Shown: positions 1,191 through 32,300, numbered from the stretch's first letter. The stretch is DNA of 64,000 bases from Candidatus Omnitrophota bacterium (GCA_029261035.1 JAJDCD010000010.1:14612-78611), one strand, 5' to 3'. The notes: a model not told the origin generated them from the letters alone. Translations and numbers: made by a program.

Positions 1191-1222
1191 GGGACAGTCC
1201 CCTTTGGGGACAGTCCCTTTTT
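1185..1222. terminator. bidirectional intrinsic terminator shared by the convergent methyltransferase and clpB genes
   Basis: The sequence is A6, then gggacagtcccc, ttt, ggggacagtccc, then T5. The hairpin is an 11/12-bp stem with one A-A mismatch and a 3-nt loop. The A-run and T-run on either side let it act on both strands. It sits between the methyltransferase stop (1175) and the clpB stop (1226). Confidence 0.7.
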
Positions 1223-5319: not shown

Positions 5320-8300
5320 TTTGAAAAACCGAAAGAATCACTGAGCCAGCACCGAACACAACATAACCCAAGACAGGAATCAACGTTAATGTTGGCATAA
5401 TTAAACTAACAGCTGCCAGGATAAGGCTGAACGAGCCTAATCCAAATAAAAGATGATACCCGTATTGCGTCATAAAGGCTTGCTGGCCTTGTCTGCGAGA
5501 GATTTCACCAAGCAATTGGATCAAATCATCGTTATAATGAACTCCTTCAAAATTTCGAAGGTACGTAATATAAAGAAGTGTTTGTTCTCTATCATTCAAT
5601 GCAAAATTATTCTTACTTCCATAATTGACAATACGTTGAACAACTTCATCTCTCATACCTGAAGTCCAAGCCCCTCTTTCCTCTTCCTGTTGTCTTAACC
5701 AGTACATAAATTCTTTCATAGCACCTTGATAACGCGCTTCTTCGTAAGATTCCCCTCTTCCAAACGAAGCCATAAACCAAGCAATTAAAGGTCCAAAAAT
5801 AAAGGAGTAAAGAATAATACCCCCAATAAAAATAAAGAGTGGGTCAATCAAACCAAGCATAACACCTGAAGCTATGATTAAACCAATATAAAGAACATTA
5901 ATCAGCTTCGCTTCACCCACTTCAAATTTATACGCATCCATCGGACTCAAACCTTTTTCCAACTGTTCTGCAACAGTCGCACTGGTAATCCACTTAAAGC
6001 CGATACCATAAAATGCTGCATGAATCGTTTCTTTAACAAAGTCAATTGAGATACGAATATTAATCAAAAGAATCGAAGTTGAAACAAACGTTTGGAATAT
6101 AGAGTCCTTCACAATTTGTTTTAAATCTCGCCCTAACTTAAACGTATTAAAGAAAAACAAGGCTCCCAATATCCACAAAAGATACGGTTTTACAAATTGA
6201 GAAAATAAATCCATCATCACCACGAGGGATTCTGCCGATTGATACTGAGATAAAAATGTATTAAATTCTGTCACCCAAACATTAAGAAAATTAATACTTT
6301 GAGAAGGGAGCGCTACATAAAAGACAAACAAAGCTCCTAAACCATAAAAAAGGTAGGATTTAAAACGATTAACATAATAATCTGGGTCTCCTAAACCTCT
6401 AAAGGTAAATTTTTCTACAATTTCATGTCTCCACCAAGTAACCCTATCGTGCTGCCCTAATCTATGTCCTATATGATACTCATTCCCTTCGTTGTCTGTA
6501 GCATAAAGACTAGACCAATTCAAAGGAACCCACCCCCACAACCCTTTACTTGGATGAACAATACTCACAGGCATCTGAGAAGACATCCCTTCCCAAATAC
6601 GTGCCATTGCAGGTTTAATAATTTGAGGCACTGCGATCATACCGGCCATAATACTTCCAAAAAGCACATACCCAATATAACGCGCTTTAGCAATCAACAA
6701 ACCTGGAATATTGGCAAACACCAAACCAAAAATCAGCCAGAGACCAAAGATTGATTCTCCCAAGAATCCATATAAAATGGTAGATAATTGAGGTGCAATT
6801 CCTCGAGGCAAATCACTCGGTTTTGCCAATCGTTCCCAAGCATCTTTAAATGTAAAAAGTCGAGGTTCTGCACGGAAAATACGGCCTAAATGTAGGGCAT
6901 GACTCATACGCCACAAAGTACCAACAAAACGATGCTCCTCAATTAATTGTGCTAAGTCACCTGTATCCCAACGAACCTTACGAGGCAATGCAAAGAAATA
7001 ACTATGCGGCAAAATCTCTAAAATAATATCTTTAAAATTAAACAGATCTATGCCTAAAATATGCATTAAGAAAGAAACATCTCCCAATTCTTCTTTTGTG
7101 AACCACTCTGACTCTGGTTTCGGTTCCCAAACAGCTCCATCATTTTGACGAGACCATAAATCTACATCTACCGGCTTCACCACACCTCGGTTAATAAAAT
7201 CATTCTCTATTGCTCTTTCTTTTAAGATTTTACGCGCTTTAGAACCATCTACTTGAGCTTCACGGAATAAACGAAATGCCATTGGAATCATGTAGTACTT
7301 ACGAATATATTCTCTCAACTGTGGGTTTCTCATATAATCAACCCAACGTTTTCTCCAAAAAATACGTCCTCCCCCACGGAAACCTTCTTGAATATCATGA
7401 CTAATAAAGTGTGCTGGAACCAACTCTTTAAAAATTACTTCTCCCATATAAAAAGGTGTGAAGACCATTTTTCCAAATGCAGGTGCTTTTGGTTCTTTTG
7501 GCGTACTTTGAATCCCTGTTTGAACCAATAACAAATGCCCTAATTGCCTCAATGCTTTCGATTCAAAACGAGAGTGGGTTGAAGTATGCGAATCTTCTTC
7601 TAATGGAGACGATTGATTATCATATGAAATTTGAGGCTGATGTACAGAAACTATATGTTTTGCCTTCATAGCAGCTATTGCATGCGCATAAACTTCTTTA
7701 GCTGCTCCAAACGTATAAGGATTCTTATTATCCCCTTGTAATTTAAATTCTATTTTATGATCAGGTTCAATAGGTGTTCCGTATTGATCTTTAATTCGCT
7801 CACCATTAAAATTAAAGTAATCCAAGTCTGGCATTTCATATTCACTCTCTTCGCCCTTAACTTTATCTAAAGTTTGAATGTCATCTGAGGAGATCAATTC
7901 TTTTTTCACAATACGAATTTGGCCCTGATCATCTACTTCAATCGTATCAAACTGAATATTTCCATCATTATCAATATGAAGCCGAGGATCATTTAAAACA
8001 TCTTTTGAATTTAACATCCACCCTTCTTCATATTGACTTCCATCCCAATAGTAAATCTTACGAAGCGTTGATTCTCCTCGTTCATTTTCAAAAGGTTTGA
8101 CATCAATGTCTTTTTTCAATAGATAACTTTTTTCACGGCCTGTTTTTCCAATATGCAATCCGGCAACATCCGCAAAAACACCTGTTCTGACAAGTTCCGC
8201 TTCTTCCTCAGTGATATCCCCACTTTTTAACATTTCATCAATAAAGCTTGGGTCTTTAAAACCAAAATAACGATCAAATGGATTTCTTCGTTTATTCACT

Positions 8301-11300
8301 CCTGTAAAATAACCTCTCACAACACGTTGAACTTTGATTCCATCGAGAGTATCTGTTGCTGTCACCCACTGATCATTTTCATCGATTAAAATCTGGCCAT
8401 GCTCTGAAGTGGTACTCGCATTCATGGAGAAGTCCGTCAATGTTCTTGCTAGAATAGGAACATCTGGGTCTTTTTGAGTCAATTGAAAATCAGGGATTAT
8501 CTTTTCTTTTCCACCCTGATCTTTTTTGAGTGTTCTAAAATCACTCACCTTTTCTAAGGTGACTATCTGATCAGGATCCGATATTAATTCAGCACCCTCA
8601 TAAGATAAAGCTCCTGTCACCTCACCAACGGTATAACCGTCTCGACTATAAACCAACAATGCTTCACGGTAATCATCCGTCACCGCAACATGACTTGTTT
8701 GATTTTGAGCAAGTATATAATTACCATCACTCGTTGCATAATCTATGGAGTCTCTAGCCACATCCTCTTTGCTCTTCAAACCTTCATAGTCCACATCTAA
8801 CTCAATAACAACTCCATCTTTGTCAAAAGTTAACTTACCGTTATTAACTTCAAAACCATCTTTTTGGTGAACCAAAATGCCCGAAACCAAATTGCCCCCT
8901 TCCATATAATAAACATTTTGATAAAACTGCTCTCCACGATCACCTTGAAGTTGGGTTACATCCACAGGACCTTTAATTAAGTAACTGTTTGCATTTGCAT
9001 TGTAGTGAACCTCAGTAGCATGTTCTTCCATAGCTGCTTTTGCAATCGCATCCGCACCTTTAATCAAATATCCTTTTTGTTTTTTGAAGACATTGGCCTC
9101 TCGCTCAATTTCATCCACAACAACAGCGGTACCTTGTTCTGCAGCTTTTAATCGGGCAGCATTCTGAATATCTTGTTTATTGGCAATGCGAACCCCTCGA
9201 ATTGGGTCTGCTTCGATATTTTCTCTAATCGTAAAAGTTCCGTCCATTTCACGCTTAATCGCACCTTGGTTACTGGCAAGACCATGAACTTTTAATATAA
9301 CTGTTTGTCCAGGCTGTATTTCATCTAAGGTAATATTTCTACTCACCCTTCTTTTTTTGGATCCTTTTTTGCTCAACCTTGAGAAAAACCCTTCTTGAGA
9401 GAGAAAAGAATATTTTCCATATTCTAAAGCTTCTCCGAAAAGTTGAATCCTTCCATAATCACTATCGATTAAATCTCCTTCAACCAAAATCTGTTTTCCA
9501 TCTTTTGTTGCCATGTCTCCACGAGAAATATCAATTTCAGGCTCTTCATAGAGAACCGCTCTTTTTTCTTTTTTCAAAGCCTTTCCATGTTTCTTTAGTG
9601 GCTGTTCCATAACCACAAAAGTTTTAGCACGTTTTACTGATTTTTTTGTTTGCCTGTTATTTTCTGTTACAGTAGCAGATCTACGAGTTAAAACACCAAA
9701 GCCAGGACGACTCATAGAAAAAACAGATTCTTCAGATTTTGCACGATAAAGAATCTCTTTCTTATTCAACTTATATTTTTTTCTAGGAATAACAACGCTA
9801 CCTGTTGCGTCTAGTAAATTTCCTTTTTCATCTAAGTAATACACTTTTTTTACAACTTCATTTGTATTTGGATCTAATCGTTTTAAGATCACTTCCTGCT
9901 CAAAAACAAGGTCTGCTGTTAATGGCATTCTTCGGCCTTGATTATCATAAACAACTTCGTCTTTACGCGTTCTGAGCGTACCATCATCATTCCACCATAC
10001 CCATTGATCTTTTCTTAATATTGGCTTAGAGCTCGATGGTTTTGAACCTGGCTCATAAACATCTCCCTTAAACACAGGGTATCTTCTTTCAATCATTTGA
10101 CCTGGGTTTTTAGGATCTTCTGCCATACCCACAATAAAACGTTCCGTTTTAACTTGCTGAACATCCCACTCTTGCTTACTATTATCTGGACGTGTGATTT
10201 CTAGCGCATTTTGCTGTTCAATATAAAAACCTTCATCGTAAGCACCAAAAAGAGCCGCATCAATATCTCGATTATCTGTTTTAATTCGTTTATCTTCTCC
10301 ATAAGCCGTATAGGTTCTTGGATGCGTAACACCATATTCTAAAAATTCAAATGCGTTCTGTAACTGCCCCCATTTCACACCAAATTTTTCCAAGTGTTCT
10401 TGAACATAAATAATACGATCAGCACCAAAACGATCTCTCAATCGCTTAATTTCTTTAATTTCTGCTTTAAGAACATTTGGCTTACTCGTTCTAGAAACAA
10501 GCAATAGTTTTAAATGATCATTCGGATCCAGGTCTTCATGATCAATTACTTTTCTATCTTTTGTTTTAGGATCATAAACCTTATAAAAAGCAAGCTGAGC
10601 TAATTTAGAAACTTTATCTACAGGAACATAAGGTTGAAACAGAATGTGAAGGTCTGAAATCAAGTCCTCTCTTGCTAAAGTTAAAGCTTCATCTGCTTCT
10701 TCTTGAATCTCTTCTATTTGAGCTTGCATATCTTCTAACGAAATAATCCTATCTTCAAATCTTGATTTGGTTTCTGTCACTTTCCTTCTTTTATCAGAAT
10801 CGATTGTTTGTCTTCTTTTGACTAACTCCAACTTCGCTGCTTCTACGTTTTTTTGCAATTGGCGCACAATATCTTCTTGCACTGCATCATCCATGTTAAT
10901 AAATCGATCTTTAACGTCAGGAATCAAACTATCTACATAATCAATCCAAAAGGCTCTTGTCTTCTCATCGTAAGTACGCAGGTTCACTGTGTTCAAGAAA
11001 CTGGTTTTACTGTGAACCATCGCACTTTGCGCTTCTGATGGAGATTGCATCAAAATAGGAGTTGCCATTGCAGCGCTCCATCTCATTGATGCTCTATTGC
11101 TCTTCAACGCATACTCATCATAATCCAGTTTTTGTTTGCGATAAAAAATATTCATCAGAGTAAACATCATAATCTGTCTAAAAGGACGGTTAATATAGAC
11201 ATAGAAAAAGGAAGTCGCCCAAACAATCATTCCAGCAGACCAATTCGCATCCATACCCACAATCATATAAAAGTAAGCAGGAGCTGTTAAAAGAATATTA

Positions 11301-14300
11301 TCCAAAAGATTTGAGAATGTGGTTACAACATCTCTTTTGGCTTCAAAATATGCTATCTCTTTCGTTTCTGTAAAATAAGCCGTTGGAATCCAAGGAATAT
11401 ATCGAATAACAGCAACAACAAACTTTAAAGCACTGAATGCCAAGAACCCAGCAACAAAGGAGGCAAAAATGGCATAGCCCCAGAAATTAAAAGCGGTCAT
11501 GTTAACCACAGCAGCAAGCATCGGTTCTAGGTGAAACAAAGTATATAAACCACCCATCAAAGGAACAATAACAAGTGGACTGAGCCAAACCAAGAAACTC
11601 TTAACATTTCCAATTTTTATGGATTTTGAAGTTGGTTCTCTTTCAGGGATTTGAGGAAGATCTTCTTCAGCCACATCACCGTGAGGTAAAGACTGACCCA
11701 CACCCAAACTAGCACCTTCCGTCAAATCCTTTTGAGTTTGAGCAACAAGTTCCGGACGTCCCAAACTAGAACCACTCCCTGTCTCAGGACCACCGGCACT
11801 CCCACTAGTTGCAGTCGACCCTGTATCATCTTTTTTCTTTTTCGTACCAAAAATTAGAAGGCTAAATAAAGCCCAAAGAGCTGCAAAAGCACCTAAAATC
11901 ATTCCCAATCCGCTCCAGAAGTTTTCTTTAATCCAACTTCTCCACTCGTCGGCTCGCGTTTCTCCTTGATCTACTGTTGGTAAACGCTTTTTAATTTCTT
12001 CCAATCCTCTTTCAGCGGCTAATTGGTCAATTTTTTCTTTTACCTGTGTTCGAATTGCTCCGTCCAAAGCATCTCTTAAGTACTCTGGAGAATAACCCAT
12101 AATTTCTCTTAAGTTTATTTTCTGATTCAAGTCTACTTGCGCTTCGTCTAGAAGAATCAACAACATTTGGTCATCTAATTTACCCTTTGTTGGTGTCACC
12201 TCTTCCTGAATCCGCTGAGCTCTATCGACTAATAAAATAAAGTTCACCACATCCAAATTACGTTTTTGAATTTGATCTAAAATCTGCCCTGCAGCTCGCT
12301 GCCTAGCAAGTATGATCGTTTCACCATCTTGAACCTGAACAAGCGTAGACATAGTTAAACCTTCTAAACGACTTGTTATAATACGAATATCTCTTTCTCT
12401 ATTCATATCCAAGACAGGAAGCTCAACTGGAGCTGTAATACTTGTTTTCAAAACCAAACCTAATCGACTGAGCAAGAATTCATTCACTTTAGATTTATTA
12501 CTTCCACTCAATGTAATCCCGAGGCCGCCGTTGCTTGTAGACGCTTCCATCACTTCGTTCACATTCTTAAGCAAACTAACCAAAATAGCAATATCCCCTG
12601 TTTGAACTTCTGCCTGCGTTCGAGATTTATCTACTTCAAGACCCGTTTCCAATAATCGATAAACCACATGATCTAAAGCATTGGTTACAACAGGGATTTG
12701 ACCTTGTTGAATCGCTTGATTTAAGAAAATTTTAGCACGCTCTTCCAAAGCCTCTTCTCGAGCTTCGGCTGTTCTACCAGGAACCGGCCCTAAATCTTTT
12801 AGGATTTCTTTTACGTATTCTTTTAAAACAAAGAAACTGCGAAACTGTTCCAAAGTCCAGCCATCATTGTCTTTTTGAGTCACATAAAAAGCAATTTGTC
12901 CCTTTTCTTTCTCTGTTAAATCACTCAATGTTCTAGGAGTCTGGCCATCAGGTACATTTCGATTTACAATTTCAAGGTAGATATTTCCAATTTGAATTCG
13001 ATCAATATAAGAAATATTAATCGCATCTCTAGGGGTAAAACCATTGGTCAATACTTGAGAGTATAAAAACCCTAATACCTTACTACCAATTTCCGCTTCT
13101 GCTTGACCCAGGTCCAACTGCTCACGAATAGTGTCAATCTCTGCTTTTCTCTCAACTGAAGTTCCTGCTGCTGCATATTCTGTATTTAATTCTCCATTTA
13201 AGTTGATCAACTCTGCTCGAATGTTAGCTTCGATTTGAGTTTGAAGCACACGGCTATCTCTTTCATTTTGCTCTTTAATTTTATACTCCGTTAACCGTTC
13301 TAAACGATTTGCTTTTTCTTGATCTCTCAGTTCTTTACTCTCTCTCAATGCTTTTCGGTAATTTTCAGCATTCTGCTCGTGCGCTGCTTCCGCTCTACCC
13401 ATACCCGTTCTGTCTCTTAAAATTCGGGCCTCAATGCGATCCAAAGACCTCTGTAACTGAGCAGAATCAATACTGCCGTCTCGTTCAAACATTTGTCGTG
13501 CTAAAAAGAATTCTAAAGTGCGTCGAATACCGCCCACTTCTTCAATAATCGTTTCTTGTTCTCTACGCACTTGCATATTGTAGTAAGCATGATCTCCACG
13601 CTCTTCAACCAAATTTGAATCTGTCACTTTCTTTGCATACTCAAATAAGTAATGTTGATAGTATTCTGCACGAGTAACAGGGGTATCACTTCCAGGAATA
13701 ACAAAGTACTCTGATTTATCTAGAGCACCCCCAAAAGTATTAAATTCTGTTGTTAATTTTCTATAAATCACACCATAGAGATTTACAGTGTCATTAATAT
13801 CTCTTAAGGTAATATCTCCTTTAAGACGAGATTCAAAATTTCCACTCATCTGAAAATCTTGAACACCTTTTTGCCAATAAAACTCAGACCAACGAGACCA
13901 GTCCCCTTCATAGAAATCATTAATCTGTCCTCCAATTTGAGCAAAATCCAAAAAGTAAACACGGCTACTATTGGCCCGTAAATTTCTGTTGGTTAATTCT
14001 TGAATCTTACGCACCGCATTAAAGTAAACTTGAATTTTCTTTCGAACATAGTCTCTCTTGATATTTAATTCTTGCTGATAGCGTTGATTTTCATCTCCGG
14101 TATCGATTCCAACAGCTCTTTCGATGATATTGGCTCTATGCCTAAAAAAGTCTCTTTCAAAATCAATCACTAAACCGGAGGTAGCACCGTCTGTCAATCT
14201 TGGAATATCCAGTTCTCTGACATTGCCAAAACCCTCAACTTGAAGCAATTGCTGAACCACATCTCCTTCAAGACGTTTTATTTGTGCTTCCATTTCCATA

Positions 14301-17300
14301 TAGAACGCCACTTGATCTCGTGTGAAACGACTACGCTCAATGGCTAACGCTCTCGCATCCGTAAGCGCCGGCGTTGTTTCTGTAGACTCAATCGCTGGCA
14401 ACCCTTGAAACGCCCTATTTTTATTGATCTCTTCTAAAATAGATTGTTTTAATGCAGCAACGGCTGTAGGGTTATTGTCATAACGCTTCATATATTCATC
14501 TGCTAAATCTCTAATACGGTCACTGTTGACCATACGATATCTCAAGAACCCAAGCTTACCATCATCTAAACGCTCTCCACGATACAAAGACATATGAAGC
14601 ACTTGAAAATAACCATCTAAAGCTAACCGTTCCATAAAGTCCGTAAAAGCAACCTCCCCGCGATCATACTGAGCAAGTCGACGAGCTCTTTCTTCAGGAG
14701 AAATATTCAAACCGTCCAACTGATTTACGTAAAGCGTTCTTCGTTCTTGTTTTGCCGTTTCTGATAAATCCATCCCCATCATAAACCGTTGACCAAAGTA
14801 AGTAGCTCGACTGTCATCCATTGGATTTTGAGTTTCTCTCAATATACCAATCATAATACGTTCTTTTTGTATCGCTTCATTCAAAGCAAATAAATGGGAT
14901 CTAAACTCTAAACTACGTCCTTCGGATTCAATCGTTTCTAAGATAATGTTACGCATTGTCTCTACGGATCGCAAACGAGCTTCTCTATCCGTTATTTCTG
15001 CACCCATTCGTCTAGTCACTGCTTGATTCATATTATCGATACGCCCCAAGAAACGTTCTAAGGTTACTAATTTTAAACGTCGTCCAATTTGACCTTGACC
15101 AAAAATAACACTCGTAAGCGCTTGTTTTACCTGAGCTCCCAATTGAACAAACTCCGTTGCTTGAAGGCGCAGCGCTGCTAATTGCTGAGTCTCCACATCC
15201 GTACGAGCAGCCCCTTTACGATCTAAGCGAACAATTTCTCTAATAAAAGCTGTTCTTACTGCTTTAACTTCATCGGAATCCAAAAATGCTGTAATTGCAG
15301 CTTTGGTTGCGGTCTCTTTTTGAGTTGCATTCAAACGATCATTATGATCAATCACAGCAAGACTTCTAAGTAAATGATCTTTCTTTAAATTTAATAGACG
15401 AATAGGCTGTCTCATAGCTCTATCGGAAGTAAATTGAATCTCTAGAGGTTGAGATAATCGTATTGCTGCTTGTATGGGTTGAAATGCTTTATCTTGCCCT
15501 TCGAAATCTAAGTTTCTAAAACCCATCAACGTTTCATGGAAACGGCTTTCGGTAATTCCAAAACTACGCTGTAAACGATCATACTGCTCAATATGAGATT
15601 CTTTTAATTGTGCAATATTTCTAAATGTGGTTCTGATATTACGAGGCAAATCTACTTCCACCATCTGAGTTAAACGGTTCTCAGCATCCGTAATTTCTGC
15701 TGTCAAACGTGCAATCACAGCTTGGTCTGTATTTGGCTTATCATTTTCAGCTTTCATTTCACGTTTTTTCACTTCAACCAATAAAGCCTGATCGCGAATC
15801 GTTCTCAAGAAATCACGAATCCAAGATGCTGCTTCTCCTTGCGCCACATCCAGAAAACGCCATTCTTCCACTGCAATACGAGAAACAAGGTGACGTGTCC
15901 TCATTAACCGATTCACTTCTTCTTTAGCCGCATTGTAATCTGAAAAACTAATACCATCTTTAGTATATAACTGAGAAACTTTACCCAAAATGTCTCTCAT
16001 ACGATAATCTCGAGCAAATGTTGTTGCATGTCCTTCAAAGTATCTGTTTAAAACATCTTGTGGTAATTGCAACCCTAACTGCGTTAATGTTTGATTAATG
16101 ATCACTCGTTTCGCATCTCGATCTCGATCTAATTCACGACGGAAATCTTGAGTATCCGTATCCACTTTTACATATTGATTCATTAAATCATTATCTGTGA
16201 TATAAAGTGCCATTCGGATATAATTTTCTAAGTCGCTCAATTGAACTTTTCCATCACTTACTTCTTTCATCATACCAAAAGCAAGAGAATCAACAATAGA
16301 GCTTCGGTATTCCAAATTAAATGCGCGACGATAATCATCCATAACCGTATCCACATTAATCATACCTTCAGCCCCCAACTGTCTTAAATCCCTTTCTAAC
16401 GAAAGTCTCTTTACAGGGCCTGCAAAATTATTCCACTCATTGTCTCGAGCAGCAATAAGAGCAGTAGCAACCGCAGCACCTTCAGCATCAAAAGCTCGAT
16501 TAATACTTTGTTTCACTTGGAAAAACCGCGTAACTGCCGCGCCAAGTTTAGAAACATCTGTCGTTAATTTACCATCGTCCTGAGCTTGAAGGAAAGCTCG
16601 GGTGAGACTTGAGATGGCACTTTCATAAAAAATCTTTCCGTATTCTGTAGAAAGTTTTGTATTTAAAGCTGAACTCATCTGAGTTAAATCCCTTAACCAT
16701 GCATTTCTTTGCGCAAGTGTAATCGAACCTTCCCGATGGAGTTGAATCAAACGTCTTTGTTTAAATAAATTAAGTTCATTGTTAAAACGAGCTTGATTGT
16801 CCAGAATATAACGATCCATTGGAATGTTAGCTTTAAAATGCCTTAAGATAGCCATTCTCATTTGAAGATGTCGTCTAAAATCAGTTCTCAACTGTTCCGG
16901 ATCAGAACTACGAACACTCGACTCTAAGAAATCTTCAGAAATACTTACGATACGACCCCAGACATCTTCTTCTTGCAACGGACGATACACTTCTGTTCTA
17001 CCATCCACAACACGAGTGGCTCTCGTTAACGTTCCTCCTTGAGGAATAACCCCTAATAATATAAAGTACTGCTCTAATTCTCCTTTTACATTACCGGTGT
17101 AACTATCATCAATAAGAAAACGGATTTGCTCTGCTCTGTGTCTGGATTTGACTAACCCAGCAACAATACGGTCAAAAGTGTATGAGGTTAAGAATCCACT
17201 ATGATTCGGATTTCCAATATAATCAAAAGTGAATGTAGCATCATTAGGGTCTGCTAGATTACGTAAACGGAATAACCTTTCAGCATCTGCTTTATTGTTT

Positions 17301-20300: not shown

Positions 20301-23300
20301 GCTTGGATATCATCATAATCCGGATGTTCTGTTTCTGTTGGCATAACAACTCTTCCACCGGTATGCCCCAGAACAATAAGAAAACGTGCTTTTGCCGCTT
20401 CTAAGTTTCTTCTTGCCCGATCTCGAGCCAATTCTTTGATACGCAATACGGTTAAGGTCCCGCTCGATCCTCTTTGAGCTTCTGTGTGTCCTTGCGCATC
20501 CTTAATTCCGCCACGGCGATTGGCTAACTCATTATCACTTCTAATTTCATCATAGGCCAACTTAGCGTCTTGATAAGTTAAATTAGCACGACGTAATTCT
20601 TGATACGCTTGAGCAATTCGAAGTTGAAGATTAAACCCTGCTCTTCTAATCTGAGGGCCTCTAGCAATATCGGCTCTAATTTTTGCAATGTCTGCATCAT
20701 TTCTCATTAACGATCTTAAAAATTCATAGGATAACTCTAACCCAACATCGCCTTGCAACGGATCTCTTCCATCTCCAAATCTCTGAGAACGATCAAATAA
20801 AGATAAAATATTTTCTTGAGATGTTTTTTGAACAAAGCTACCGTCATTGGTTAAATTCTGGAACTCTAAAGGCATAAAGTCATTATTAAAAAACTGCCAA
20901 CCTGCAATCAGTCGTGCTCTAAAGCCTCTCCAACCATAATTGCCACTTTCGATACCCGAGATACTCTCTGCAGCATTCGCTCGAATCAATGCTTCTTGAA
21001 AACGTGCATCTTCTAAACCACCTGCTTGCTGAGGGTCTACTGCCTGCCTCATTACACCCGCAACATAAGCTTCTGTAATATTAATTGTAGGACCATAATA
21101 AAGAATCTTTTCCGCCATAAAATCTGCGATTATACCCGCATTTGCTTCTGGTAAATTAAATTCTGATTGAAGGATTGATTTAAACTCATTACGAGTTTTA
21201 CTGAGCAATTCGGACCTATTACTAATATTTGCAATTAACCGTTGGTAACGGTTTCCGATCAAAACAGGCTGAACCACTGTTCCAATCACATTTCTCCGAA
21301 CATCCACATTTTGAGATAAGTAGTTCATAAGAATCAGTTTAATTTGAGGGTAATCATTTTGACGATTTAGCTCAGGAAGATAGTAGTCCACCAGATGAAC
21401 AGGATTCGTTCTTCCTGGCATTTTAAGCTGCACACCTTCTGTTTCCTCCAACTGCATTTCTCGTTGGTTAATCAATGATGCTAAATAAAGGTTATTAACC
21501 GCCGTACCAAAAACTTCTTTAATCTTTACATCCAATTCTCTCATTCGTTGATCCAACATGGTCGTTCCTGCTGTCAAAGAAGCTAAATCTTGAATTGTTT
21601 TTTGAAGGTCTGATCGAGAAGCAACCAAAGTAGCACCCGCAGAATCAACCTGGTCCTTTGCATTATCTACTCTGACACGCGCAAGCATTCTCTGACTATG
21701 AAGCCCTCGAAGATGCTCTTTTAACTGAAGCTCTGCTGTTTGAAGCGCGAGGCGCGTTCTAGCACGAGCAATTGCAACTTTACCATTCGTATCTAAATAA
21801 GGAGTCAGGTCAAATCCTGCAAAAAGGCCCACAGAAGTTCCTAAAATAAACCCATCAATTCCAATACGCTGTCCTGCAAGTTGATCGAGCACTCGAACCG
21901 TATTCACATGAGCCACACGGTAGCGAGTTTCTGCATTAGGAGTTAAAAATGGACGCAACGACTGCCACTCACGATCAGCCTGAGCAGGTGTCATCCCTTC
22001 CACAGAAGCTAATGAAGAGTAAGAAATACTTAATTGATCTCGAGGCCCTAAACCAAGAGAGGACTTATAATTCTGTTTCGCACCTTGACGCTGAGCACGT
22101 GCAAGCTGCAACCGATCTCTAGATTGAGCAATCCCTAAATTAGCTTCAGCAATACGAGAAATCGTAGAAGACAATGCCCCTCTCATAAGAGACTCTAACT
22201 GCGCTTTAATATCATTATGTTTTTGCGCATTAATTCCTTGAGCTTGAAGAGTGGCTGTATAACGTGATTTGACAAGCCTAACCGCTTCATCCAAACTTGT
22301 AAATTCAATTTGACCTAAAAGGTCTCTTAAACCATTGACTAAGTTGGTTTCTATTTCATCTGAAGGAACACCTAAACTAACACGATTATTTTGAAGGTAC
22401 GTTCTAAACTGAACTAACATATCAGAACGTAACTGTGTTGAAAGAGTCGAAATAATTTGAGTTCTCTGATTAACCACATTTGTATAACGTGTGACTAAAT
22501 CATTTGTTCCTCTTAATTCTAAATGAGCTCGGTTTGCAGACAAAGTTAATCGGTTACGAATCGCATCTCTCTCTGCTTGTAATTCTTTATATCGAGCAAT
22601 CAAGAGTTTGACATTCCCCATATAAGAACGTCCCTCTTCGGTATCCAGCGCTTTCAAGGTAATACCTGCTCCACCCACAAGAACACGTCGTCTTTGGCCT
22701 GCAGCTACATTCCCATCATAATCTTGCCCCACAGCTCCTTCAACACCTGGAGCAGTTACAGAGCGTAAACGTGCATCTCCCCAATCCAAAGTCACAACAT
22801 CCCAGATCCAATCACCCAAACTATAATGAACTTCCTCCACATTTTCTAATTGTGCAATCAAAGGTTCACTGAGCATATCCTTATCTCGACGGATACGTTC
22901 AATTTCTTGGTTGATGCCAATAATATACTCTGCTTCCAAAGAGCTTTGTTGCCAATAAGAGTCATCAACAAAATCTCTCAACTTTTCTTTTTCATCTGAG
23001 GTCATTGGTAACGCATTAATAATTGTATTCACACGAGCTTTATATAAATCAACCGCATCAGACATAACTGTGTTACGGAAATTAATGATACTTCCGCGTT
23101 CTCTGGTTTTTTCATTCACATAACTTTCAATAGCATCTTTCTGAGCATCAGATAAACCACTAACACCATTAACTCTAGCTCTTACAAGAGCAACCAGTTC
23201 GGTTCTAAAAACTTCTTTTGTTTTTGTATCCTCATCAAACCCGCTAATCGCAGAACGAACCGCTGTCATAATTTCTGTTCTCTTCGCTTCATTAATTGGA

Positions 23301-26300
23301 GTATATTGGCTTAGATGGTAATTAACCGAATCGATAAAATGTTTTACATCGTCATCATCCACACCATCCTCAAAATCAAGTATATCTCCTACTTCCGCAA
23401 CACTCACCTCTTCCGCTGCAGTAGCAAATTGAGCCATCACTGCATCAATTCTTAAATTACCCATCATATACGTTCTAAAATTAGGACCCGGAGTAGCAAT
23501 AACACCGGATTGAGACAAAAACGTAGGGAAATAAATTTCCAATTCTGCCGTTGCTTGGTTTAATTTAATATTCCTTTGAGCCAAACCTTGCAGATAAGCT
23601 TTAAACCCTCTTTTAACTGTTTCTACTTGTCTATCATTCAACATCACGGCTAAAACAACACCTTCTCTTGTTGTTACACTTCTCATAAGGCTCGCTCTAT
23701 TTTCATCGACCCACTTTGAGAAAGTATCATTCACTGGACCCACATGAGATTGATTAAATGTGATCCGTGTTGCTGGAGGTAAAAATCGCCCAATCTCTGT
23801 TCTTAAATGAGAAGCTTCTTTAGCAGAATAAGCACGTCTAATTCTCCAATCAAAAGCCTTTACATGCAGATTGACTTGATTCTCTTTTGTTTCTTGGGTA
23901 AAAACACGGCGCCCTTCTGAGTCAATTGAATATTGTCTTTCCGTTACTCTTTCTGTAATTTCATAGTCCTTATCTGTTAATGCTTCTTTAAGGGTGTTTA
24001 ATTTATTTTGAATTTGTTCTCGGATTTCATCTAGCTCATCTTCTAACGGTCCATCTCCAATCACATCTTCATGGTCATCCAACGCATCATTTAACCCTTC
24101 TAAATATTGTTTTGCTGTATGACCTGCTTGACGAGAGTAACCTGCTATTTGTGCTAATCTTGTAATACGTTGATGGTTTCTAACTAAACGATCCCGGGCT
24201 GCTTCTTCAAATTTATTGACAATACTTTCAGAAAAATTACTACGGCTAATTTTATCGCCATCACTGTCAAAAACAGGTTCCCGACGAATAATACGAAGTA
24301 GATCTTCTTGAATATTTCCATGCAAAGTACGGTTAATACCTAAATGCGTCAGTACTCGAGATAATTGAGCTCTTAAAGTTGCTTCATCCAAATCAGTGCT
24401 GTACATAATATCCAGTTGGTTACGACCTCGAAGCAAAGCTTTCTTTTGATTGAAAAACGTTTGTTCTCTTTCGACCAAAGTTTCTAATCGATCTGAAGTC
24501 AAAGCCCCAGCCTGAGACAATTGTTGTTGAAGCTGTGTTTTTAAGGCCAACATTTGAAGATCATTTGCTTTCATTTCAGGATGTTCTTCAATTCGATCTC
24601 GAAGGTCTGATGCCAAACCACGAGACGTCATATTCACCGAAGGAATACGGTTCATTCGTTCAATAAAGTTCTGCAAACGAACAATCTGATCTTCAACCAC
24701 TGTATCCCCACCTTCGGTCTGAACTTTACGAGTTACTTGCGTCACGTAGCGGAAAAGAATGGCTGATTGATCTCGAAGTGTTTTTTCGGTTTGATTTTCT
24801 TGTCTCAATGCTTCTTGATATTCTCTAAAAGCGGTCTGCAATTGATCATAAGAAACAATCCCTGCAGGATCTTGATAACGAGCCGTTCTCTGGTCTAATA
24901 ATTCTTTAGCTCTTGCTTTCGTATTTCGAATACGGAGCAATGCTTGCATGGCTTGTTGCACTCTTAACTGGGTCGCTGCAAATTCGGATTGCTGAGCATT
25001 TAAGTTTCGAATTAACTGAGAATTTTGATGAGCCATTTGTGCCGCAAAGGTAATTTCATTAATTGGGTTATCTCCAAATAGACCTGCTATTTGATTCCAA
25101 CCTTCTTCAAAGCTAACAAAAGGTGAAAGGGATACACCTGACAAACCTGCTTGAATACGAAGACGCGCTAATAAACGCAACCGTGTAGAAGCACGTTGAT
25201 AATCCTGATTTAAATGTTGAAGTTCCGTTGTTTGCCATTGAACTAATTGATCTAAAGTAACTCCATCCGCATCTAATTCAAAACGATACTGTCTTAACAT
25301 TTCAGTTAAAAACTCTCTAGCTTTTGCCACAGGCAAACCAGAATTCGTTAACAATACCACAGGGCTCATATTTAAAATTGGACCACCTGTTCTTGTAATA
25401 GCCCCTGCCCTAAATTCATTGGCTAACCGAATTTCTTGACTTGGAAGAACTCCCATCATTTCCTTGATTTGAGATCGAACTTCCACAAGTTGATAGTTAT
25501 GCACCAAGTTTCTTTGATTCACAAGTCGGCGTAAATCAGACTCTGATCGAGCCAAAACTTCTGCACTTTCAACATTGCGACGAACACGATCTCTCTGAGT
25601 TTCAACCTGCTCTTCTTTTTCTCTAATTAATTCTGTTAACTGATCATATCTACTCTTATATTGTGTGTATTGAGAAACTAAACGAAGAACCGTAATAGCT
25701 GTATCTAGAGCATCAATCGCTCCATACGTTTGTTCTAGCTCTATACGTGTTCTCGTAATTTTTTCCACAACTTCTTGTCTTGGATCCCAGAAGTAATAAG
25801 TGACGTCCATTCCAACACCCACACCTCGCCTTAAGTCTGCACCCAAAAATAAATCAACACGAGGGAGGCCTGTAGCTGCATCAATAATACCTCTCTGTCT
25901 TTGGATTTCGACAGCAGCTCTTCTAACCTGATTTCTCCAACGAGTTCCCTTAAGAATGTCTTCTGCTTTTAAATTATTAAAGTCAATCCCACTATGTTCG
26001 ATTAATCGCCCTTGATGTGTAAAGTTAGCAGGAACAGAGTTAATACCACCAAAAACCATACGAGCAATATTTTCGCTACGTCCTACAGCAACGGTCGCTG
26101 GACGACTGCTTGGAGTAGGAGCAGGATCTTCTGGGCTCACCCGCCCTTCCCCTGCAGCAAGGAGTATATTTCTAACACCTCTTGGCAAGGTCGCTGGTAA
26201 GGTTGTTGCACCCCAAGTACGACGATCTCCTAAGCTCACTCTTCTACTAGTTCTTCTAGGAGTAGGTTGTTGAGCTTCTTCTCCCGTGCCAAAAACTTCT

Positions 26301-29300
26301 CTTGCTTCTTGCAAGAAAATATCATTCATGATGTTATAAATTTCAAACTGACGATTAATTTGTTCTAATGTTCGTGATGGCGCTTCAAGAATGTCTACAC
26401 CCGCTGCACGCCCTCTTTCAACTTCACTTTCTTGCATCTGAGTTTGAAATCGAACAGCACGATCTTCCGCAACACCTGTTTGAGGAGAATGACCATCTAA
26501 AACGCGGCCACTCGCATGTCTCATATGTAAATAAAGATAAGCTTCATTGGCTTTACCAAATCCATTTGGAGACAACGTTCTTTCATTCAAAATCAAAGAT
26601 GGCATCAATCCTTCAAACAAACTTCCACCCCATGAAGGAACATAATGAATTGTGCGGTTTTCACCATTAACACGAATTGTTCTCTGGTAAAGTCCATTTT
26701 GTGGTGTTTGAGCTTGACCCGTCGTAGCAGGTTGTGTTCTTGGTGTATTTGTCCAAACATCTGCGGGAACCCCTCGACCCATTGCAACAATCAAATGAGG
26801 TCTAATTTCAGTATAAATCAAACCATAATGTGTTGGATTACCAAACTGGTCTGCTAATGGAGCATAATTACGTGTTGTTGCGTTGTAATCTAAACCGGTA
26901 TACATCTGCTTTCGAGTTGCATCATAAAGTTGTGTGAAATTCATTGCCTCATACAGTCTATTAGCAGAACCTTGAATTCGAGTGTCCGTTGCAAAAGCCT
27001 GTTTTACAACAATCAAACCAGAAGCCAACCAACCATTGTCTACCGTAGAAATTTTACGATCTGAGGTTTGTCCATTAGCAACTGTAATACCATCATGAAA
27101 CAATCCATTCACTTTATTCATTGCTGTAAGTGTACGAAGCACTTTATTAACTCTAGACTTCGCTTCTGCTTCTGTAATAATTCCTAGTTCTTTGGCAGAA
27201 ACAATACTCATCAAATACAAACCAATATTCGTTGGTTTTGTATACGAAGCTCGAGTAGTTCCATCACTCGCCAAAGAATCTGCAGGCAATCCTGTTGTAG
27301 GATCCACAACCGCTTCGAAAAATGCCCACGTTCTTGTTGCAATCTCTCTCAATAACGTTTGATCCGCTGGGGTCAATGTTTGATTTGTATTTAAACCCTG
27401 TGGCGTACTTAATCCAGAAAATGTGGTGTTCATCAAACGTAAGTGAGGCTGAATCGATGCATCCGTTTGAAAATGGTTTTGAACTGCACCATTTCTAACC
27501 GCATTCGCAATCGAGATCATAATCATACCTTGATCTAAACTCAACATCGTTTGGTCGACAGAACCTGTTTCTAAATGGACCGCATCATAAAACCCTTTAG
27601 GACCATAAACAAGAGATTGATCTCTTGCGTCCTTTAAAGCAGCTAATCGTCTAATGTTGGCCATGGCTTCTTGAGGCGCTGTTGACAAAGCTAAGAAAGT
27701 GGCGTGTGGCGTTATCACAGGCTGGTCACTGGTATAACCTCCTGAAGGCTGTGATCCTAGAGGAGCACCAAATTCAGAATAACGTCCTGAAGTACGTGGA
27801 TCGCGAGAAACTGAAAGTCCCCAAGCAGTAAAGTCCCCTGGTAGCTTGTTTGGCGCAGCCACATTCGCACCCGTTCTATAAACTTCAACTAAACGTGTAG
27901 CTCTTCTTTGAATATCCGTAATGTTAGGGTTCGGAACCAATCCACGATATAGAGCAACAATATCTGAAACTTTCTTTGTGTCCACATCAGTGCTTGCAAG
28001 TATGGTACGAACTCTTCTAATCGTATCCAAACTTTGTACCTGAGTTGGAGACCAAAAGTTGTTCTGAGAAGCGACTCGAACCACCCCCTGAATAGATGTT
28101 GTCAAATCAGGGTAAATAGCTGTGATAACTTCGTTCAGTTTTTGATTACTAATTTCATCACCACTCGTACCGGCGGCAGTAACTGCTTTTGCTCGAAAAG
28201 CAACTCTAATAGCATCTGCACCTGAAACTTCAGAAGGAATTAAACCCACTAGAGCATTGACTAAAGTTGCACTATCCTTCTTATGAAAATTTAAATAATT
28301 TCTAAGAGATGTTCTCATAGCCGCATTCAATGGTGCTCCGGCATGAATTTGACGCGCAAGCAAACGTCTCATATCTTCTAAATTAGCTCTTTTATATTCA
28401 TATAATGTCCACTGAAGAGCTAAATTAGTCCTCCACTCATCATTACCCCATAAATAATTAAATAACGCTCCTGAATTACCACCCATCGCACGCATTGCAG
28501 AAGGCATTCCTCTATAGTAAATTTCAACGAATTTCTGTACGAAAGCTTGATTTTCACTTAAAGCAATCAATTGGTCTTTTACATTTTGAGACAATGTTGC
28601 TCTATTGCGTCTAATATATTCTTCAACCGCTTCAATCAACTTACGTCTTAATTGAGCAACAGTTCTTTCTTGTCCTCTTCGATTTAACTCGCCTTGATGT
28701 CTGTCTAGATTATCTGTCAGACGACCTAACTCGACTAATTCACGATTAACCGTCGTTAAATCTCCTTCAATTCGCGTAGCGCCTACCTGTAAACCGCTAA
28801 TCTCTCCTCCTTTTTCTCGAGACAATTGGTCTAAAGAACCTCTCATAGAATCCAAACCGCCCTCCCCTTGCGCTGTGGTAATAGACTCTACTAATAAAGA
28901 AATAATCTCACGCTGTACTTCTGGGCTACGTCCTTCTAAAGTACGAAGGATTCTTTCTATATCTGCTTGAGTCAACGGAGTTTCTGGAGAAGCCGTATTT
29001 ACTGCTGCTTGGAAAGTGCGGGCTCTCTGCTGGATTTCTGCACGTTGATCCACTTGATATTTTTGATTTAGATACTCCCCACCAAAAACCATTCCAAAAA
29101 CCAAAGTAAGAATCAGTATGATTTTACCGAAGCTCTTCATGCCTTTGGCTTTATTAATGGAAAGCATAAAACTGATAGAATCCCAAACCCTATAAAAACT
29201 CCAAAGAGCAAAAGAACCTATTCTTCCGATACCGCTAATTGGTTTACCAATGGCTAAAAGTAGACCTCCTACGACAGAACCCACAATCAGAGGAACTGAA

Positions 29301-32300
29301 GAAGGTAAAACACTTGCAGAAGAACCTAAAGCTTGCATCACAGTGCCTACCGCTAACGTTTCAGGGAAAAGTGCTGCAGCACTGAGCAAACCAAAACCTA
29401 TAATCAAAGCACCCGCAACAATTCGAACTCCCGTAACAGGTTTCTTAAACATCCAATTCGTCCACTTCGTTGCTGCCACTTTGCTTTGAACATACATCGA
29501 AGCTTCGTAGTACACAGAATTTGTTTTAGCAAGCAAAGGAATCATCATACTAACAGAAGGCTTAATCACAAAAACAATCAATGCCGTTGCCCCATAAACA
29601 GCACCCATCACAAAAAAGACACTAGGCAAGAATCCCGTAGGGACAGTAATTCCTACAATAGGAATAACCCATGAAGGAGTTGCTCCTGTTATAACTGCAG
29701 TAGCAGCGGTAGCAACCCGAAGCATCGCACCAAAAAAGAGACTCGCTAAAAGAGGAGCAAAAATAAGGTTAGGAGTACGTTCAAACATTCCCAAGATAGA
29801 GCGCAACGGCCTCAGAGAAGCTCCTCTTTCTAAAGAGGCTTTAACTTCAACTTCTAGTTGCAGAACGTCCACTTTATTTTTAGCTACAAGATCAATGCCG
29901 CGAGGATCTCTACTACCTGAGTAAGAAGAGGCCACTTCATTTTGTAGTCTTTTCACTTTATCAAAAGCAGCAATCAATTCTGCTCGAATGGCTTTTTGTT
30001 CTTCATGTCTATGCTCATGAATAGCTGTTGCTGTTCGGTTGTATTTTTGCAAATGATATCGAGTAGTATTAATTGCTTCACTCAATTGATATTGAGTAAG
30101 TTGTAAGAGTTCTTCTTTGACAGAGGCTAAATCAGCTTCATAAGCTACAACTTCCGTATTTACTTCCTGATAATAATCATCAACTTTCACCTTTAGAGTG
30201 CCTGTTCTAGAACTAAAAGCTCCTAGTCGAGCTTCTGCATTTAAAATTTGCTCTTCAAAAGGGTAGTCTACATAATCTCTTTTTACTGGAGGACCTCTAG
30301 CACTCAGCTCCGTAGATATTTCTTGAACACTGACCAGATGTTCTTTAACAACTGCAATACGATTTCTAAATCGTTTCATTTTGTTCTCATACTCAACAAC
30401 GGCATGGTTTTGTTTAAGACGATCTTCTTCAAGCTGTCTTTTGTCGCTTGCCATACCCGCTCTTAAACCAGAATAGTCAAATTCCGCTACGTTAAGAGTA
30501 GATAGCCTTTCCGTTTTCGTACCTATTGTTTCTTCAAGGTTCTCGTGACGCCCTCTCATAATACCTGTGTATTCATTCAACACAGAATCTTCCAACAAAC
30601 TATAAAAACCCAGCAATGCCTGTTTCGCATATTCTGTCTCTGCTTCTGCCCCTGTTTTTATTTGATTAATACGTGCTATATCGGAATCACTAATTTCTAG
30701 GTTATTGTCTTCTTTTTGCTGCCTCAAACGCTCCGCTGTCACATAAATCGTATCCCAATATTCCCTTAAGTCTCCCTGCACTATTTTGAGCAAATTCACC
30801 AAAGCGTTCGCTCGAACAAGAGCATCATCTTCACGATTAACAATTTCTCGCACCGTCTCAACCCAACGATCTAAATGTAATGCCTTCATATTTTTCAAAG
30901 CCGTATCTGCTGCTGCAATCATCGCCGCCACTTGAGGCTCTGTTAAGGGTTGACCTGGATCCACAGGGATCATTGGTGGCGCCGCTGCTTCAGGAAGCAT
31001 AGGTAATTCATCTGACTCTTCACCCATTTGTTTCTTAGCACGATTCATCGCAAAGAAAGCCCATTCATAATACCCTTTGGCATCTTCCATTGCTCTCTCA
31101 GCTTCTTCTTTTTCCAAATTGGCTTGATCCCATTGCTGAAGAATCTCTTCTATTACCAAAGAATCTTCTGCTTTGCTATCAACATTCAGAAGAGCCGTAT
31201 TAAGCTCCTCAAATTTTCGCTCAACACCGACAAAAGCTCGTGCAAGGTCATTAGAATCTTGACTTAAACCTTCTAATCTTGTTTTATAACTTGCTTCATT
31301 CCCATCAAAATCGGTTTCTTCATCCAAATCTTTAACAAAATCCTGAACTTTCTTTTCAAACGTTTCAACACGAGAACGAAATGTAGAAGTTTCTTTCAAA
31401 GAGGCTTCATCTTTCCTCAAAGCATCCAAATCGGATTGAACTGTATTTATTTCGTTCTCCAACGCCTCGAGCTTCCCATTATAATCTGCAATAAACGCAT
31501 TTAACTCATTAATACGCTTATTGGTTGCTTCCATAAATTCTCTAATCTGCGTTTCTAATTGTCTTAAATTTAACTGCTCTTCAGAACCATTAACTGTTAC
31601 TGTTATCGTACTACTCTTTGTAGCTAATATTACTTTTTGAATAAGCTCAATACTTTTAGCAGCTCTCGTTAAAGGTTCTTTAGAAGTAAATGCTAATGTT
31701 TTTACTCTAGCAACCCACTGTTTCGCTCTAAGAACACTATCTTGATCCTTTACTTCGTTAAAATCAAACAGTTCATCAAATTCGTAATCCTTAGCATTAG
31801 GCAGACCAAAAGCACTTCCCAACTCTTCTTTAGCTTGTAAAAATGCCTCATCAACCGCTTCTCGATCCTCTTCAAATTGACTTGGAACATTCTCTAACAA
31901 AATTGAAAACTGTTCTTGTTGCATCTTTTCAATTTGAGCAATTTGCTGTCTCTTCTCATTAATAAAATGTTTTATCTGTAATTCAAACTCAAAGTAGCTT
32001 CCAGTGTAATCTGATTCTTTTAAATACATCGTATTTGCAAACTTCTCTATTAGCTTTACAAGCCTTTTAAACATAACTTTGTAATCAGCATCACCCGACT
32101 CCACTAACGTATTATCTTTAAATCCTAACAAAAGTTGCCCGGGCTTCGTAGAACTCGTTTTGAATACTTTTTCAAGCTCTTCCACATTTTCGCCTAATAA
32201 GCTTTCTGCCTGAGCCAAGACTTCTAAAATCTGTTTAGGGTCAGAGTTAGCATCAATTTCCAAAGCAAATAAATCCCCCAAAATATCCAAAAGTACCGTA

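Follow-up and report, generated by a model that had tools for sequence, protein, structure and literature searches.

A giant Omnitrophota protein with three transmembrane clusters, one of them probably related to the membrane core of the glucan synthase Cgs

The 64,000-nucleotide (nt) stretch of DNA considered here (the window) comes from a Candidatus Omnitrophota bacterium (GCA_029261035.1 JAJDCD010000010.1:14612-78611) and includes four long open reading frames (ORFs), among them a giant gene encoding 16,198 amino acids (aa). The hydrophobic helices of the giant protein gather in three widely separated transmembrane (TM) clusters, which are very probably genuine multi-span membrane domains of one polypeptide and not buried globular helices. 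Cluster 3 is probably homologous to the membrane core of Cgs, the glucan synthase of glycosyltransferase (GT) family 84 (GT84). The features of the giant ORF are listed below from the N- to the C-terminus, with P and L numbers referring to relatives that are described further on.

4274..52870 (-), giant ORF, 16,198 aa plus stop; a single ORF in the ORF listing, with uniform codon usage.
52778..52834 (-), signal-peptide-like or anchor segment, aa 13-31; from hydrophobicity, conserved in P0012.
50672..52777 (-), conserved globular N-domain, aa 32-733; 34.5% identity to P0012 aa 3-720.
29801..50671 (-), acidic helical region of ~7,000 aa, aa 734-7690; from composition and periodicity.
29078..29767 (-), TM cluster 1, five or six helices at aa 7702-7720, (7725-7743), 7751-7769, 7817-7835, 7857-7875 and 7913-7931; from hydrophobicity and charge bias, no homologues.
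11909..29077 (-), middle segment, aa 7932-13654, predicted trans (periplasmic); from composition and charge bias.
26567..27826 (-), two adjoining beta-1,2-glucan-enzyme-like stretches; from Pfam, a phmmer search of the PDB and a Cgs hidden Markov model (HMM).
19724..20197 (-), OEP (TolC-type)-like stretch, aa 10892-11049; one Pfam match.
11192..11908 (-), TM cluster 2, three strong and two weaker helices, aa 13655-13893; from hydrophobicity and charge, kept in L005 and partly in P0009.
7811..11053 (-), predicted cytoplasmic non-helical region, aa 13940-15020; conserved in P0001, P0009, P0011, P0014 and L005.
6941..7810 (-), GT84 (Cgs)-like half glycosyltransferase domain, aa 15021-15310; from profile alignments to Cgs.
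5333..6751 (-), TM cluster 3, eight helices, aa 15374-15846; from hydrophobicity, Cgs alignments and charge.
4277..5083 (-), conserved alpha/beta C-domain, aa 15930-16198, ending ...QVAQAA; found in P0002-P0005, P0012 and L005.

Hydrophobic segments were located by 19-residue sliding windows on the Kyte-Doolittle and Hessa scales over the whole 16,198-aa protein, and on both scales are confined to aa 13-31, aa 570-588, the three clusters and one marginal site at aa 10341. Cluster 1 (aa 7702-7931) contains five strong and two weak candidates, cluster 2 three strong and two weak, and cluster 3 eight strong and two of the interface type. Thirteen segments have a summed apparent free energy <=2.5, compared to a mean of 2.3 (maximum 6) in 100 composition-preserving shuffles, and six have an apparent insertion energy <=0, compared to 0.4 (maximum 3) in the shuffles; 11 of the 13 concentrate in three stretches that form ~6% of the protein. 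The cluster helices include tight hairpins with turns of 1-4 residues, and the candidates at aa 7887-7905, 15591-15609 and 15616-15634 are charged and probably form interface helices. In cluster 2, TKKKKDD and a Gly/Ser-rich linker of 86 aa come after the first helix, and the end is marked by a conserved YVYINRPFR motif. In cluster 3, a hairpin at aa 15374-15414 (equivalent to Cgs TM3-4) is followed by helices at aa 15503-15521 and 15559-15577, a hairpin at aa 15657-15696 (equivalent to Cgs TM5-6) that is preceded by the interface helices of aa 15591-15634 with the motif K-W-I-T-S, and a final hairpin at aa 15807-15846. The clusters share no similarity with one another or with other parts of the giant ORF, and an origin as internal duplicates was rejected for this reason. 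As real multi-span inner-membrane domains, the three clusters would thus carry the polypeptide across the membrane repeatedly.

The relatives of the giant protein were identified by an exhaustive HMMER search with aa 15000-16198, which returned 15 cluster representatives (P0001-P0015). Eight of the 15 cover cluster 3 (P0006-P0008, P0010, P0011 and P0013-P0015), P0001 and P0009 additionally cover the region before it, and P0002-P0005 and P0012 cover the C-terminal domain. Word-index searches with cluster 1, cluster 3 and the family alignment, as well as a genome-collection scan with cluster 3, returned nothing; since the exhaustive search found 15 relatives, the word-index misses of cluster 3 reflect a limit of the method. 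A metagenome scan with a two-sequence alignment added two loci: (i) L005, with an ORF of 5,289 aa that is open from the locus start and collinear with aa 11434-16198 at 26-40% identity, and (ii) L006, with a frame open over all 20 kb. Two or three separated helix clusters also occur in one frame in P0005, P0011, L005 and L006, and L005 repeats the helices, tight hairpins and charged flanks of clusters 2 and 3. P0005 (4,224 aa, truncated by the contig end) combines a cyclase-like domain with TM clusters, a GT-like domain and the C-domain in a single frame; after it on its contig (L088, GCA_016214265.1, JACROU010000064.1) come a response regulator, an Hpt protein, a T2SSE/MshE-type ATPase with receiver domains, and histidine kinases. 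P0009, a complete protein of 1,867 aa with a start confirmed by upstream stop codons, is ordered as an N-terminal anchor, ~490 aa, one helix, a non-helical region, a GT-like domain, a hairpin, an interface helix and a hairpin. Its single helix sits at the position equivalent to cluster 2, and the protein, as the minimal form of this layout, appears to resemble Cgs in plan, with a large loop separating the two pre-GT helices. Cluster 2 of the giant protein, which recurs in L005, appears to form the upstream membrane portion of the conserved unit that includes cluster 3. Cluster 1, an orphan among the bundles, is followed by two beta-1,2-glucanase/cyclase-like domains.

The link between cluster 3 and Cgs is based on a PDB-wide profile match and on profile-profile comparison with controls. 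When the cluster-3 family profile is searched against all PDB sequences, Cgs is the sole match below E 0.5 (E 2e-4) and aligns in two collinear stretches: SHDLLEG...RQHRWARGDWQ, and Cgs residues 875-966, which span the interface stretch and TM5-6. When hhalign is used to compare profiles with four Cgs genes fetched from plasmids, aa 15021-15305 align locally onto Cgs 608-788 (probability 88-92%, P 3e-6 to 7e-7, score 59-60) and aa 15581-15719 form a second collinear match onto Cgs 872-1002 (score 34); the global alignment reaches a probability of 93% (E 4.5e-8). Scores of 13-20 are obtained with the controls, namely Cgs profiles that were reversed or, in eight cases, column-shuffled. An HMM of the 12-sequence alignment gives only marginal matches to four other Cgs sequences (E 0.07-2).

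The residues that align include those used in catalysis by Cgs, in which D739 is the catalytic base and R773 is part of the RW motif (PMC10901819). By both hmmsearch and hhalign, these residues align with D15159 and R15300, and the pairs H15158-D15159 and R15300-W15301 are nearly invariant in the family alignment. The half-GT domain has the motifs QGD(15047)NKN at the DxD site, HQPQI, FGKM, SH(15158)D(15159)IQEG and KVR(15300)W(15301)DTGD. The family as a whole is marked by GKM, SHDxxEA and ExxPxxF...RWxxGD before the helices and by ETxxSTSILLxN, WxTS and DPSLxFxGxPIFxxSWxFGP within them. Of the UDP-coordinating Asp residues of Cgs (D527 in the N-terminal GT half and D624 at DxD), the first Asp of the DxD motif is kept (D15047) but the motif reads D-N-K, while P0007 and P0010 keep D-S/C-D. 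The layout is also matched: Cgs has hydrophobic hairpins at about residues 418-461, 817-858 and 943-983, of which the last two flank the interface stretch, and the giant protein follows the same sequence of GT-like domain, hairpin (aa 15374-15414), interface helices and hairpin (aa 15657-15696). The helices at aa 15503-15521 and 15559-15577 and the final hairpin are extra compared to Cgs. Thus, the module appears to be GT84-derived, with a putative activity, and seems to retain the second GT-A half (the first Asp of DxD, QP, GK, the His-Asp base and Arg-Trp), the interface helix and both post-GT hairpins. A search of the literature that combined GT84 with giant proteins returned no report of a GT84-like module in them, and the link to Cgs appears to be new.

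The topology of the clusters was modeled by enumerating possible helix sets in the manner of TopPred and scoring each set by its bias in Lys+Arg. The best model of cluster 3 has eight helices running from inside to inside, with 28 Lys+Arg on the inner side versus 1 on the outer; the sole long Lys/Arg-free loop of this cluster (aa 15522-15558) falls outside. For cluster 2, the best model has five helices running from outside to inside (17 versus 3), an orientation that is unchanged in a three-helix model. For cluster 1, the best model has five helices running from inside to outside (18 versus 4), and the alternative has six running from outside to outside (13 versus 9). The GT-like domain is independently placed in the cytoplasm by the predicted homology to Cgs. 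Based on this placement and the charge bias, the middle 5,700 aa would therefore be on the trans side, such that aa 7932-13654 are predicted to be periplasmic while aa 13940-15360 and the C-terminal domain are predicted to be cytoplasmic.

The use of basic residues agrees with the trans placement of the middle segment. This segment is Arg-rich and Lys-poor, with a Lys fraction, K/(K+R), of 0.27 compared to 0.52-0.56 in all other soluble segments of the protein and 0.61-0.65 in the neighboring ClpB and methyltransferase. The switch is sharp at clusters 1 and 2, and codon usage is unchanged across it. L005 has the same switch (0.28 in ORF residues 1-2200 versus 0.56), which is absent from the more distant P0005, P0009 and P0011.

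The initial annotation had described helix bundles at three places in one polypeptide, and its residue and nucleotide numbers agree with the 4274..52870 (-) ORF to within about 5 residues. That these bundles are transmembrane rather than buried in globular domains is supported by the segment statistics, the Lys+Arg bias and the Cgs homology, and its suggestion that the segments between clusters alternate between the two sides is consistent with the same charge bias. It had further set the protein apart from fibrous adhesins and tail-anchored proteins, which also holds: Tandem Repeats Finder detects no array within the giant ORF, unlike the fibrous repeat adhesins of the RTX/Bap/Ebh type, and the three clusters are internal. 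The annotation did not note that cluster 3 appears as a recognizable relative of the Cgs (GT84) membrane module, a relationship that fixes the segment before cluster 3 in the cytoplasm.

The middle segment includes two stretches that are related to beta-1,2-glucan enzymes. Pfam matches are above cut-off for PF10091 (Glycoamylase; aa 8349-8468, 56.5 bits) and PF11329 (DUF3131; aa 8510-8604, 38.3 bits). When the stretch that follows cluster 1 is compared to the PDB by phmmer, it matches the Cgs cyclization domain 8wy1 (E 1.5e-21), 8rf0/8rf9 (1.8e-18) and GH144 glucanase structures (1e-4 to 1e-8); a further PDB entry, 8xuj, is a member of a new beta-1,2-glucanase family. An HMM of Cgs finds only two matches in the whole giant protein, at aa 8493-8634 and 8350-8480 (independent E 1e-29 and 2.5e-11, respectively), and no match to GH94 anywhere. 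The two matches are in permuted order, with the C-terminal third of the cyclase aligned to aa 8350-8480 and its N-terminal quarter to aa 8493-8634. Accordingly ordered, aa 8349-8480 resemble the C-terminal part of GH144 glucanases and the Cgs cyclase, and aa 8493-8634 (reaching ~aa 8768) resemble the N-terminal part of the Cgs cyclase (GH189), with the E 1.5e-21 match to 8wy1. Only parts of each (alpha/alpha)6 domain align. Overall, aa 8349-8768 look like two tandem (alpha/alpha)6 domains, with a circular permutation as the other option, and would belong by sequence to the SGL-clan beta-1,2-glucan enzymes (GH144/GH189).

The remainder of the middle segment and its neighbors are less readily classified. 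The OEP match, at 22.0 bits (E 1.6e-4), just equals the gathering threshold and has no second OEP repeat, and the TolC-type identity of aa 10892-11049 is tentative. A phmmer search of the PDB returns nothing for aa 8934-13933, 13934-15360 or 15851-16198. The non-helical region of aa 13940-15020, which lies directly before the GT-like domain, lacks helical periodicity, has recurring D-x-x-G-x-(L/I) motifs and matches no family. The C-domain has no PDB or Pfam sequence match, and its structure model (predicted local distance difference test, pLDDT, of 74) gives a best Foldseek hit in the PDB of E 0.018 (TM-score 0.29), such that it provides no compartment marker. A small-residue tail ends the C-domain of every relative except P0003 (...QAA, ...VSA, ...AAA, ...ASA and ...KSA).

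The N-terminal half of the giant protein starts with a Lys-rich n-region (four Lys in 12 aa) followed by a hydrophobic core of 19 residues (aa 13-31) and a candidate cleavage site, VLA|QV, at aa 35-40. A lipoprotein signal was considered and rejected, as no lipobox surrounds Cys15. The N-domain that follows carries the motifs VIHIQDAHANY and GGFHT and has a sub-threshold match (E 0.08) to the haem-binding ChaN/Tiki superfamily, which is a weak hint only. The hydrophobic segment of aa 570-588 (nt 51107-51163) sits inside this conserved domain and shows no charge bias. Its counterpart in P0012 is not hydrophobic and carries two Glu (TAAAMLSLFEAIEFYGG); thus, aa 570-588 probably form a buried helix and not a membrane span. 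The ~7,000 aa beyond (aa 734-7690) are 19% Asp+Glu with a net charge of about -6 per 100 aa, have a strong 3.5-residue hydrophobic periodicity (median power ratio of 3.0 versus 1.3 in shuffles) and have no Pfam match.

The side of the membrane on which this half resides is the subject of conflicting signals. A Sec-like N-terminus would put the N-domain and the ~7,000-aa helical region outside, and would therefore require six helices in cluster 1. Three features favor the inside, where the C-terminus is predicted to be: the charges that flank cluster 1, the composition in Lys and Arg, and the TM-less P0012. P0012 (L087:175-6810) is a complete protein of 2,211 aa that shares the signal-like N-terminus and N-domain (34.5% identity over 730 aa), a helical middle and the C-domain with the giant protein but has none of the three TM clusters and no internal membrane helices. 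The giant protein reads as a P0012 scaffold with an insert of ~8,200 aa (aa ~7700-15900, including all three clusters) and a much longer helical region. The initial annotation had assigned both the ~7,600-aa helical part and the glycosidase-like and TolC-like region to the trans side; the second assignment is upheld by TKKKKDD and the 17 versus 3 bias of cluster 2, while the first depends only on the signal-like N-terminus. Its TolC-like region corresponds to the single OEP match at threshold (22 bits), and its isolated helix at aa ~565-585 is present as a hydrophobic segment (aa 570-588) but is unlikely to span the membrane, given its place in a conserved domain with a non-hydrophobic P0012 counterpart.

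The giant gene is preceded by a ribosome-binding-like GAGG/AAGG motif 12-21 nt 5' of its ATG and forms an uninterrupted frame of 48.6 kb at 38% G+C. Pfam finds only three matches in the ORF (Glycoamylase PF10091, DUF3131 and one OEP). The protein has a single cysteine (aa 15, within the N-terminal hydrophobic segment). A second very long ORF lies 695 bp upstream on the same strand (53566-63984 (-), at least 3,472 aa, its frame open at the window edge); its product is acidic, has no cysteine and shows no hydrophobic segment or Pfam match. Downstream of the giant gene, clpB lies in the same orientation, and beyond it is a divergently oriented methyltransferase gene. The 3' ends of clpB and the methyltransferase gene, which converge, include a perfect 11-bp tandem repeat (AGGAGTAAAAA x3.3) at window positions 1157-1192. 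No SecA-DEAD, peptidase C39, dockerin or TSP3 domains are detected by Pfam over the giant ORF and its neighbors, and no secretion, type II secretion or pilus genes are present in the window. A genome scan based on ClpB, with matches of <=60% identity, found no syntenic giant gene.

Comparison to known systems places the giant protein near Cgs but outside its family in the strict sense, with a GT-membrane core that nevertheless appears homologous. Like Cgs, it has (i) the second GT half in the same motif order (DxD position, QP, GK, SHD base and RW), (ii) post-GT helical hairpins separated by an interface helix with W-x-T, (iii) a cyclase-type (alpha/alpha)6 domain in the same polypeptide, and (iv) a GT domain with a predicted cytoplasmic location. 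Unlike Cgs, it is 16,198 aa long compared to about 2,850 aa, its N-terminal GT half is undetectable, its DxD motif is D-N-K, and its cluster 3 has eight helices compared to the four that follow the Cgs GT domain. The cyclase-like domain is ~6,500 aa upstream, duplicated with a GH144-like partner and predicted to be periplasmic; the GH94 phosphorylase, which is C-terminal and cytoplasmic in Cgs, is missing; and ~7,000 aa of acidic helix are added together with unrelated N- and C-terminal domains. In comparison to the SGL-clan beta-1,2-glucanases (GH144, GH162, GH189 and the new families described in PMC12102758), the stretch of aa 8349-8768 has matches both to GH144 structures and to the cyclization domain of Cgs. 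The (alpha/alpha)6 alignments are partial, and the domains are surrounded by an Arg-rich segment of 5,700 aa.

BcsA-type synthases are the established model of coupling between synthesis and translocation. Like BcsA, a processive membrane GT2 enzyme, the giant protein has a predicted cytoplasmic GT domain under a TM bundle via interface helices, an RW motif and a catalytic Asp at the TED/SHD position. By contrast, there is no direct sequence match to BcsA, the relation is only through Cgs, and channel formation by the bundle is putative here.

With these comparisons in mind, the giant protein is best read as a membrane-woven scaffold, in which the C-terminal half is an expanded Cgs-like unit and glucan-processing domains are held on a huge periplasmic arm (probability of about 0.5). 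In topological terms, the middle segment would correspond to the periplasmic loop that connects the pre-GT helices in a Cgs-like enzyme, here enormously expanded. A mechanism that combines synthesis with processing is proposed more tentatively, at somewhat less than even odds. In this mechanism, the GT-like domain would be docked on the cytoplasmic side beneath the bundle of clusters 2 and 3 and would make or at least bind and thread a glucan chain, the glucanase/cyclase-like domains would act on the chain across the membrane, and the long acidic helical N-terminal part would serve as a scaffold or stalk. A stronger version, in which the half of the protein with clusters 1-3 is an inside-out Cgs-like synthase, its short periplasmic loop grown into a Lys-depleted arm of 5,700 aa with the glucanase/cyclase-type domains, that polymerizes beta-glucan in the cytoplasm, threads it through its own bundle and cuts or cyclizes it outside with no separate exporter, and in which the GT84-derived module (aa 15021-15700; P0001, P0005-P0011 and P0013-P0015) represents an undescribed family of membrane glycosyltransferases, is speculative and rather unlikely.

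Several points weigh against the reading of a scaffold with an expanded Cgs-like unit. In the GT module, the nucleotide-binding N-terminal GT-A half (the Cgs D527 region) is undetected upstream, with no alignment before Cgs ~608 even when 450 aa are added, and the catalytic competence of a GT-like domain with D-N-K is putative. Pfam and NCBIfam at permissive thresholds, applied to all cluster and inter-cluster pieces and to the family alignment, give no match to the cluster 3 module, and an AlphaFold model of aa 15000-15900 from nine sequences was discarded (pLDDT 40). The cyclase placement is also at odds with Cgs, in which this domain is cytoplasmic and follows TM6, compared to ~6,500 aa upstream on the predicted other side here, with GH94 absent. 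Cluster 1 has no relative by sensitive local phmmer against every fetched relative and Cgs, and its internal loops alone cannot separate the five- and six-helix models, which leaves the helix parity ambiguous. P0012, with the same N- and C-domains and no internal helices, conflicts with an arrangement in which the N-terminus is outside and the C-terminus inside. The topology statements as a whole rest on simple scales and the positive-inside rule rather than a trained predictor.

By architecture, the protein is another giant of the signal-peptide and many-TM Omnitrophota type, and such proteins are already described. Nearly all giant Omnitrophota proteins are reported to have many TM helices, and among those of >=10 kaa the mean is 22, the median is 16 and 39% have a signal peptide plus TM helices (West-Roberts et al. 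2023, bioRxiv 10.1101/2023.11.21.568195; 2026 preprint 10.64898/2026.06.07.730766). The protein described here shares an ORF of >10 kaa, a signal-like N-terminus, about 17-20 grouped TM helices, carbohydrate-active domains, mostly unannotated sequence and an adjoining second very long ORF. The leading alternative, which is possible but on balance unlikely, thus regards the protein as an ordinary member of this type: the bundles would do no more than anchor a huge surface or predatory effector in the inner membrane, the GT84-like part would be a dead relic, and the glucanase-like domains would degrade the beta-1,2-glucans of prey or partner (e.g., osmoregulated periplasmic glucans) instead of processing a polymer made by the protein itself. 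The prevalence of TM helices reported in the two preprints, the degenerate DxD motif, the undetectable N-terminal GT half, the hydrolytic nature of GH144-type enzymes and the second very long ORF directly upstream are all consistent with this alternative. Against the idea of a relic, the HD pair with the catalytic base and the RW motif are conserved throughout the family, also in members of ordinary size. The kinship with the described giants is likewise weakened by the lack of SecA-DEAD, C39 peptidase, dockerin and TSP3 domains and of type II secretion or other secretion/pilus neighbors here, and by the GT84/Cgs-like module, which is unreported in 10.1101/2023.11.21.568195 and 10.64898/2026.06.07.730766.

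An improbable alternative is that the ORF encodes a polyprotein or several products, with processing or internal initiation leaving each cluster in a separate mature membrane protein. Modules of the giant do stand alone in complete proteins elsewhere (P0012 of 2,211 aa and P0009 of 1,867 aa), and West-Roberts et al. raise the proteolytic processing of giant proteins; however, Pfam detects no protease domain in the ORF, the sequence has no cleavage-site marks, and in L005, L006, P0005 and P0011 two or three clusters remain together in a single frame.

A chimeric assembly, in which unrelated genes would be fused in frame, is very improbable: although the amino-acid composition shifts sharply at clusters 1 and 2 and no relative covers the cluster 1 junction, the 48.6-kb frame is open at 38% G+C, L005 is collinear over aa 11434-16198 with the same composition switch, and the cyclase-like domain of P0005 shares a frame with its TM clusters, GT-like domain and C-domain. 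Synonymous codon usage is moreover uniform across the thirds of the ORF (relative synonymous codon usage r of 0.93-0.98; G+C at third codon positions of 0.27 in each), on which ground a chimera was rejected; thus, uniform codon usage and the collinearity of L005 indicate that the single polypeptide is no assembly artefact, at least from aa 11434 onward. A reading of the hydrophobic stretches as helices buried within soluble globular domains is just as improbable. It is probably true of aa 570-588, and the charged candidates 7887-7905, 15591-15609 and 15616-15634 are likely to be interface helices, but it is contradicted by the six segments with insertion energy <=0, the tight hairpins of 1-4-residue turns, the Lys+Arg biases of 28:1 and 17:3, and the homology of cluster 3 to TM hairpins of Cgs that were resolved by experiment.

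Giant bacterial proteins are almost wholly unannotated, their predicted helices are treated as generic anchors, and their topology predictions are admittedly unreliable. In the protein described here, one cluster gains a probable concrete identity as the membrane core of a glucan synthase for which the structure has been solved, and this identity fixes the membrane side of the adjoining segments and makes the topology testable. A GT84-related membrane family is likewise uncovered that is outside the Pfam and NCBIfam models. The arrangement suggests that the synthesis of a beta-1,2-glucan-like polymer and its extracytoplasmic processing can be combined in one chain, and the Lys-to-Arg switch bounded by two helix clusters may mark a compartment in such proteins.

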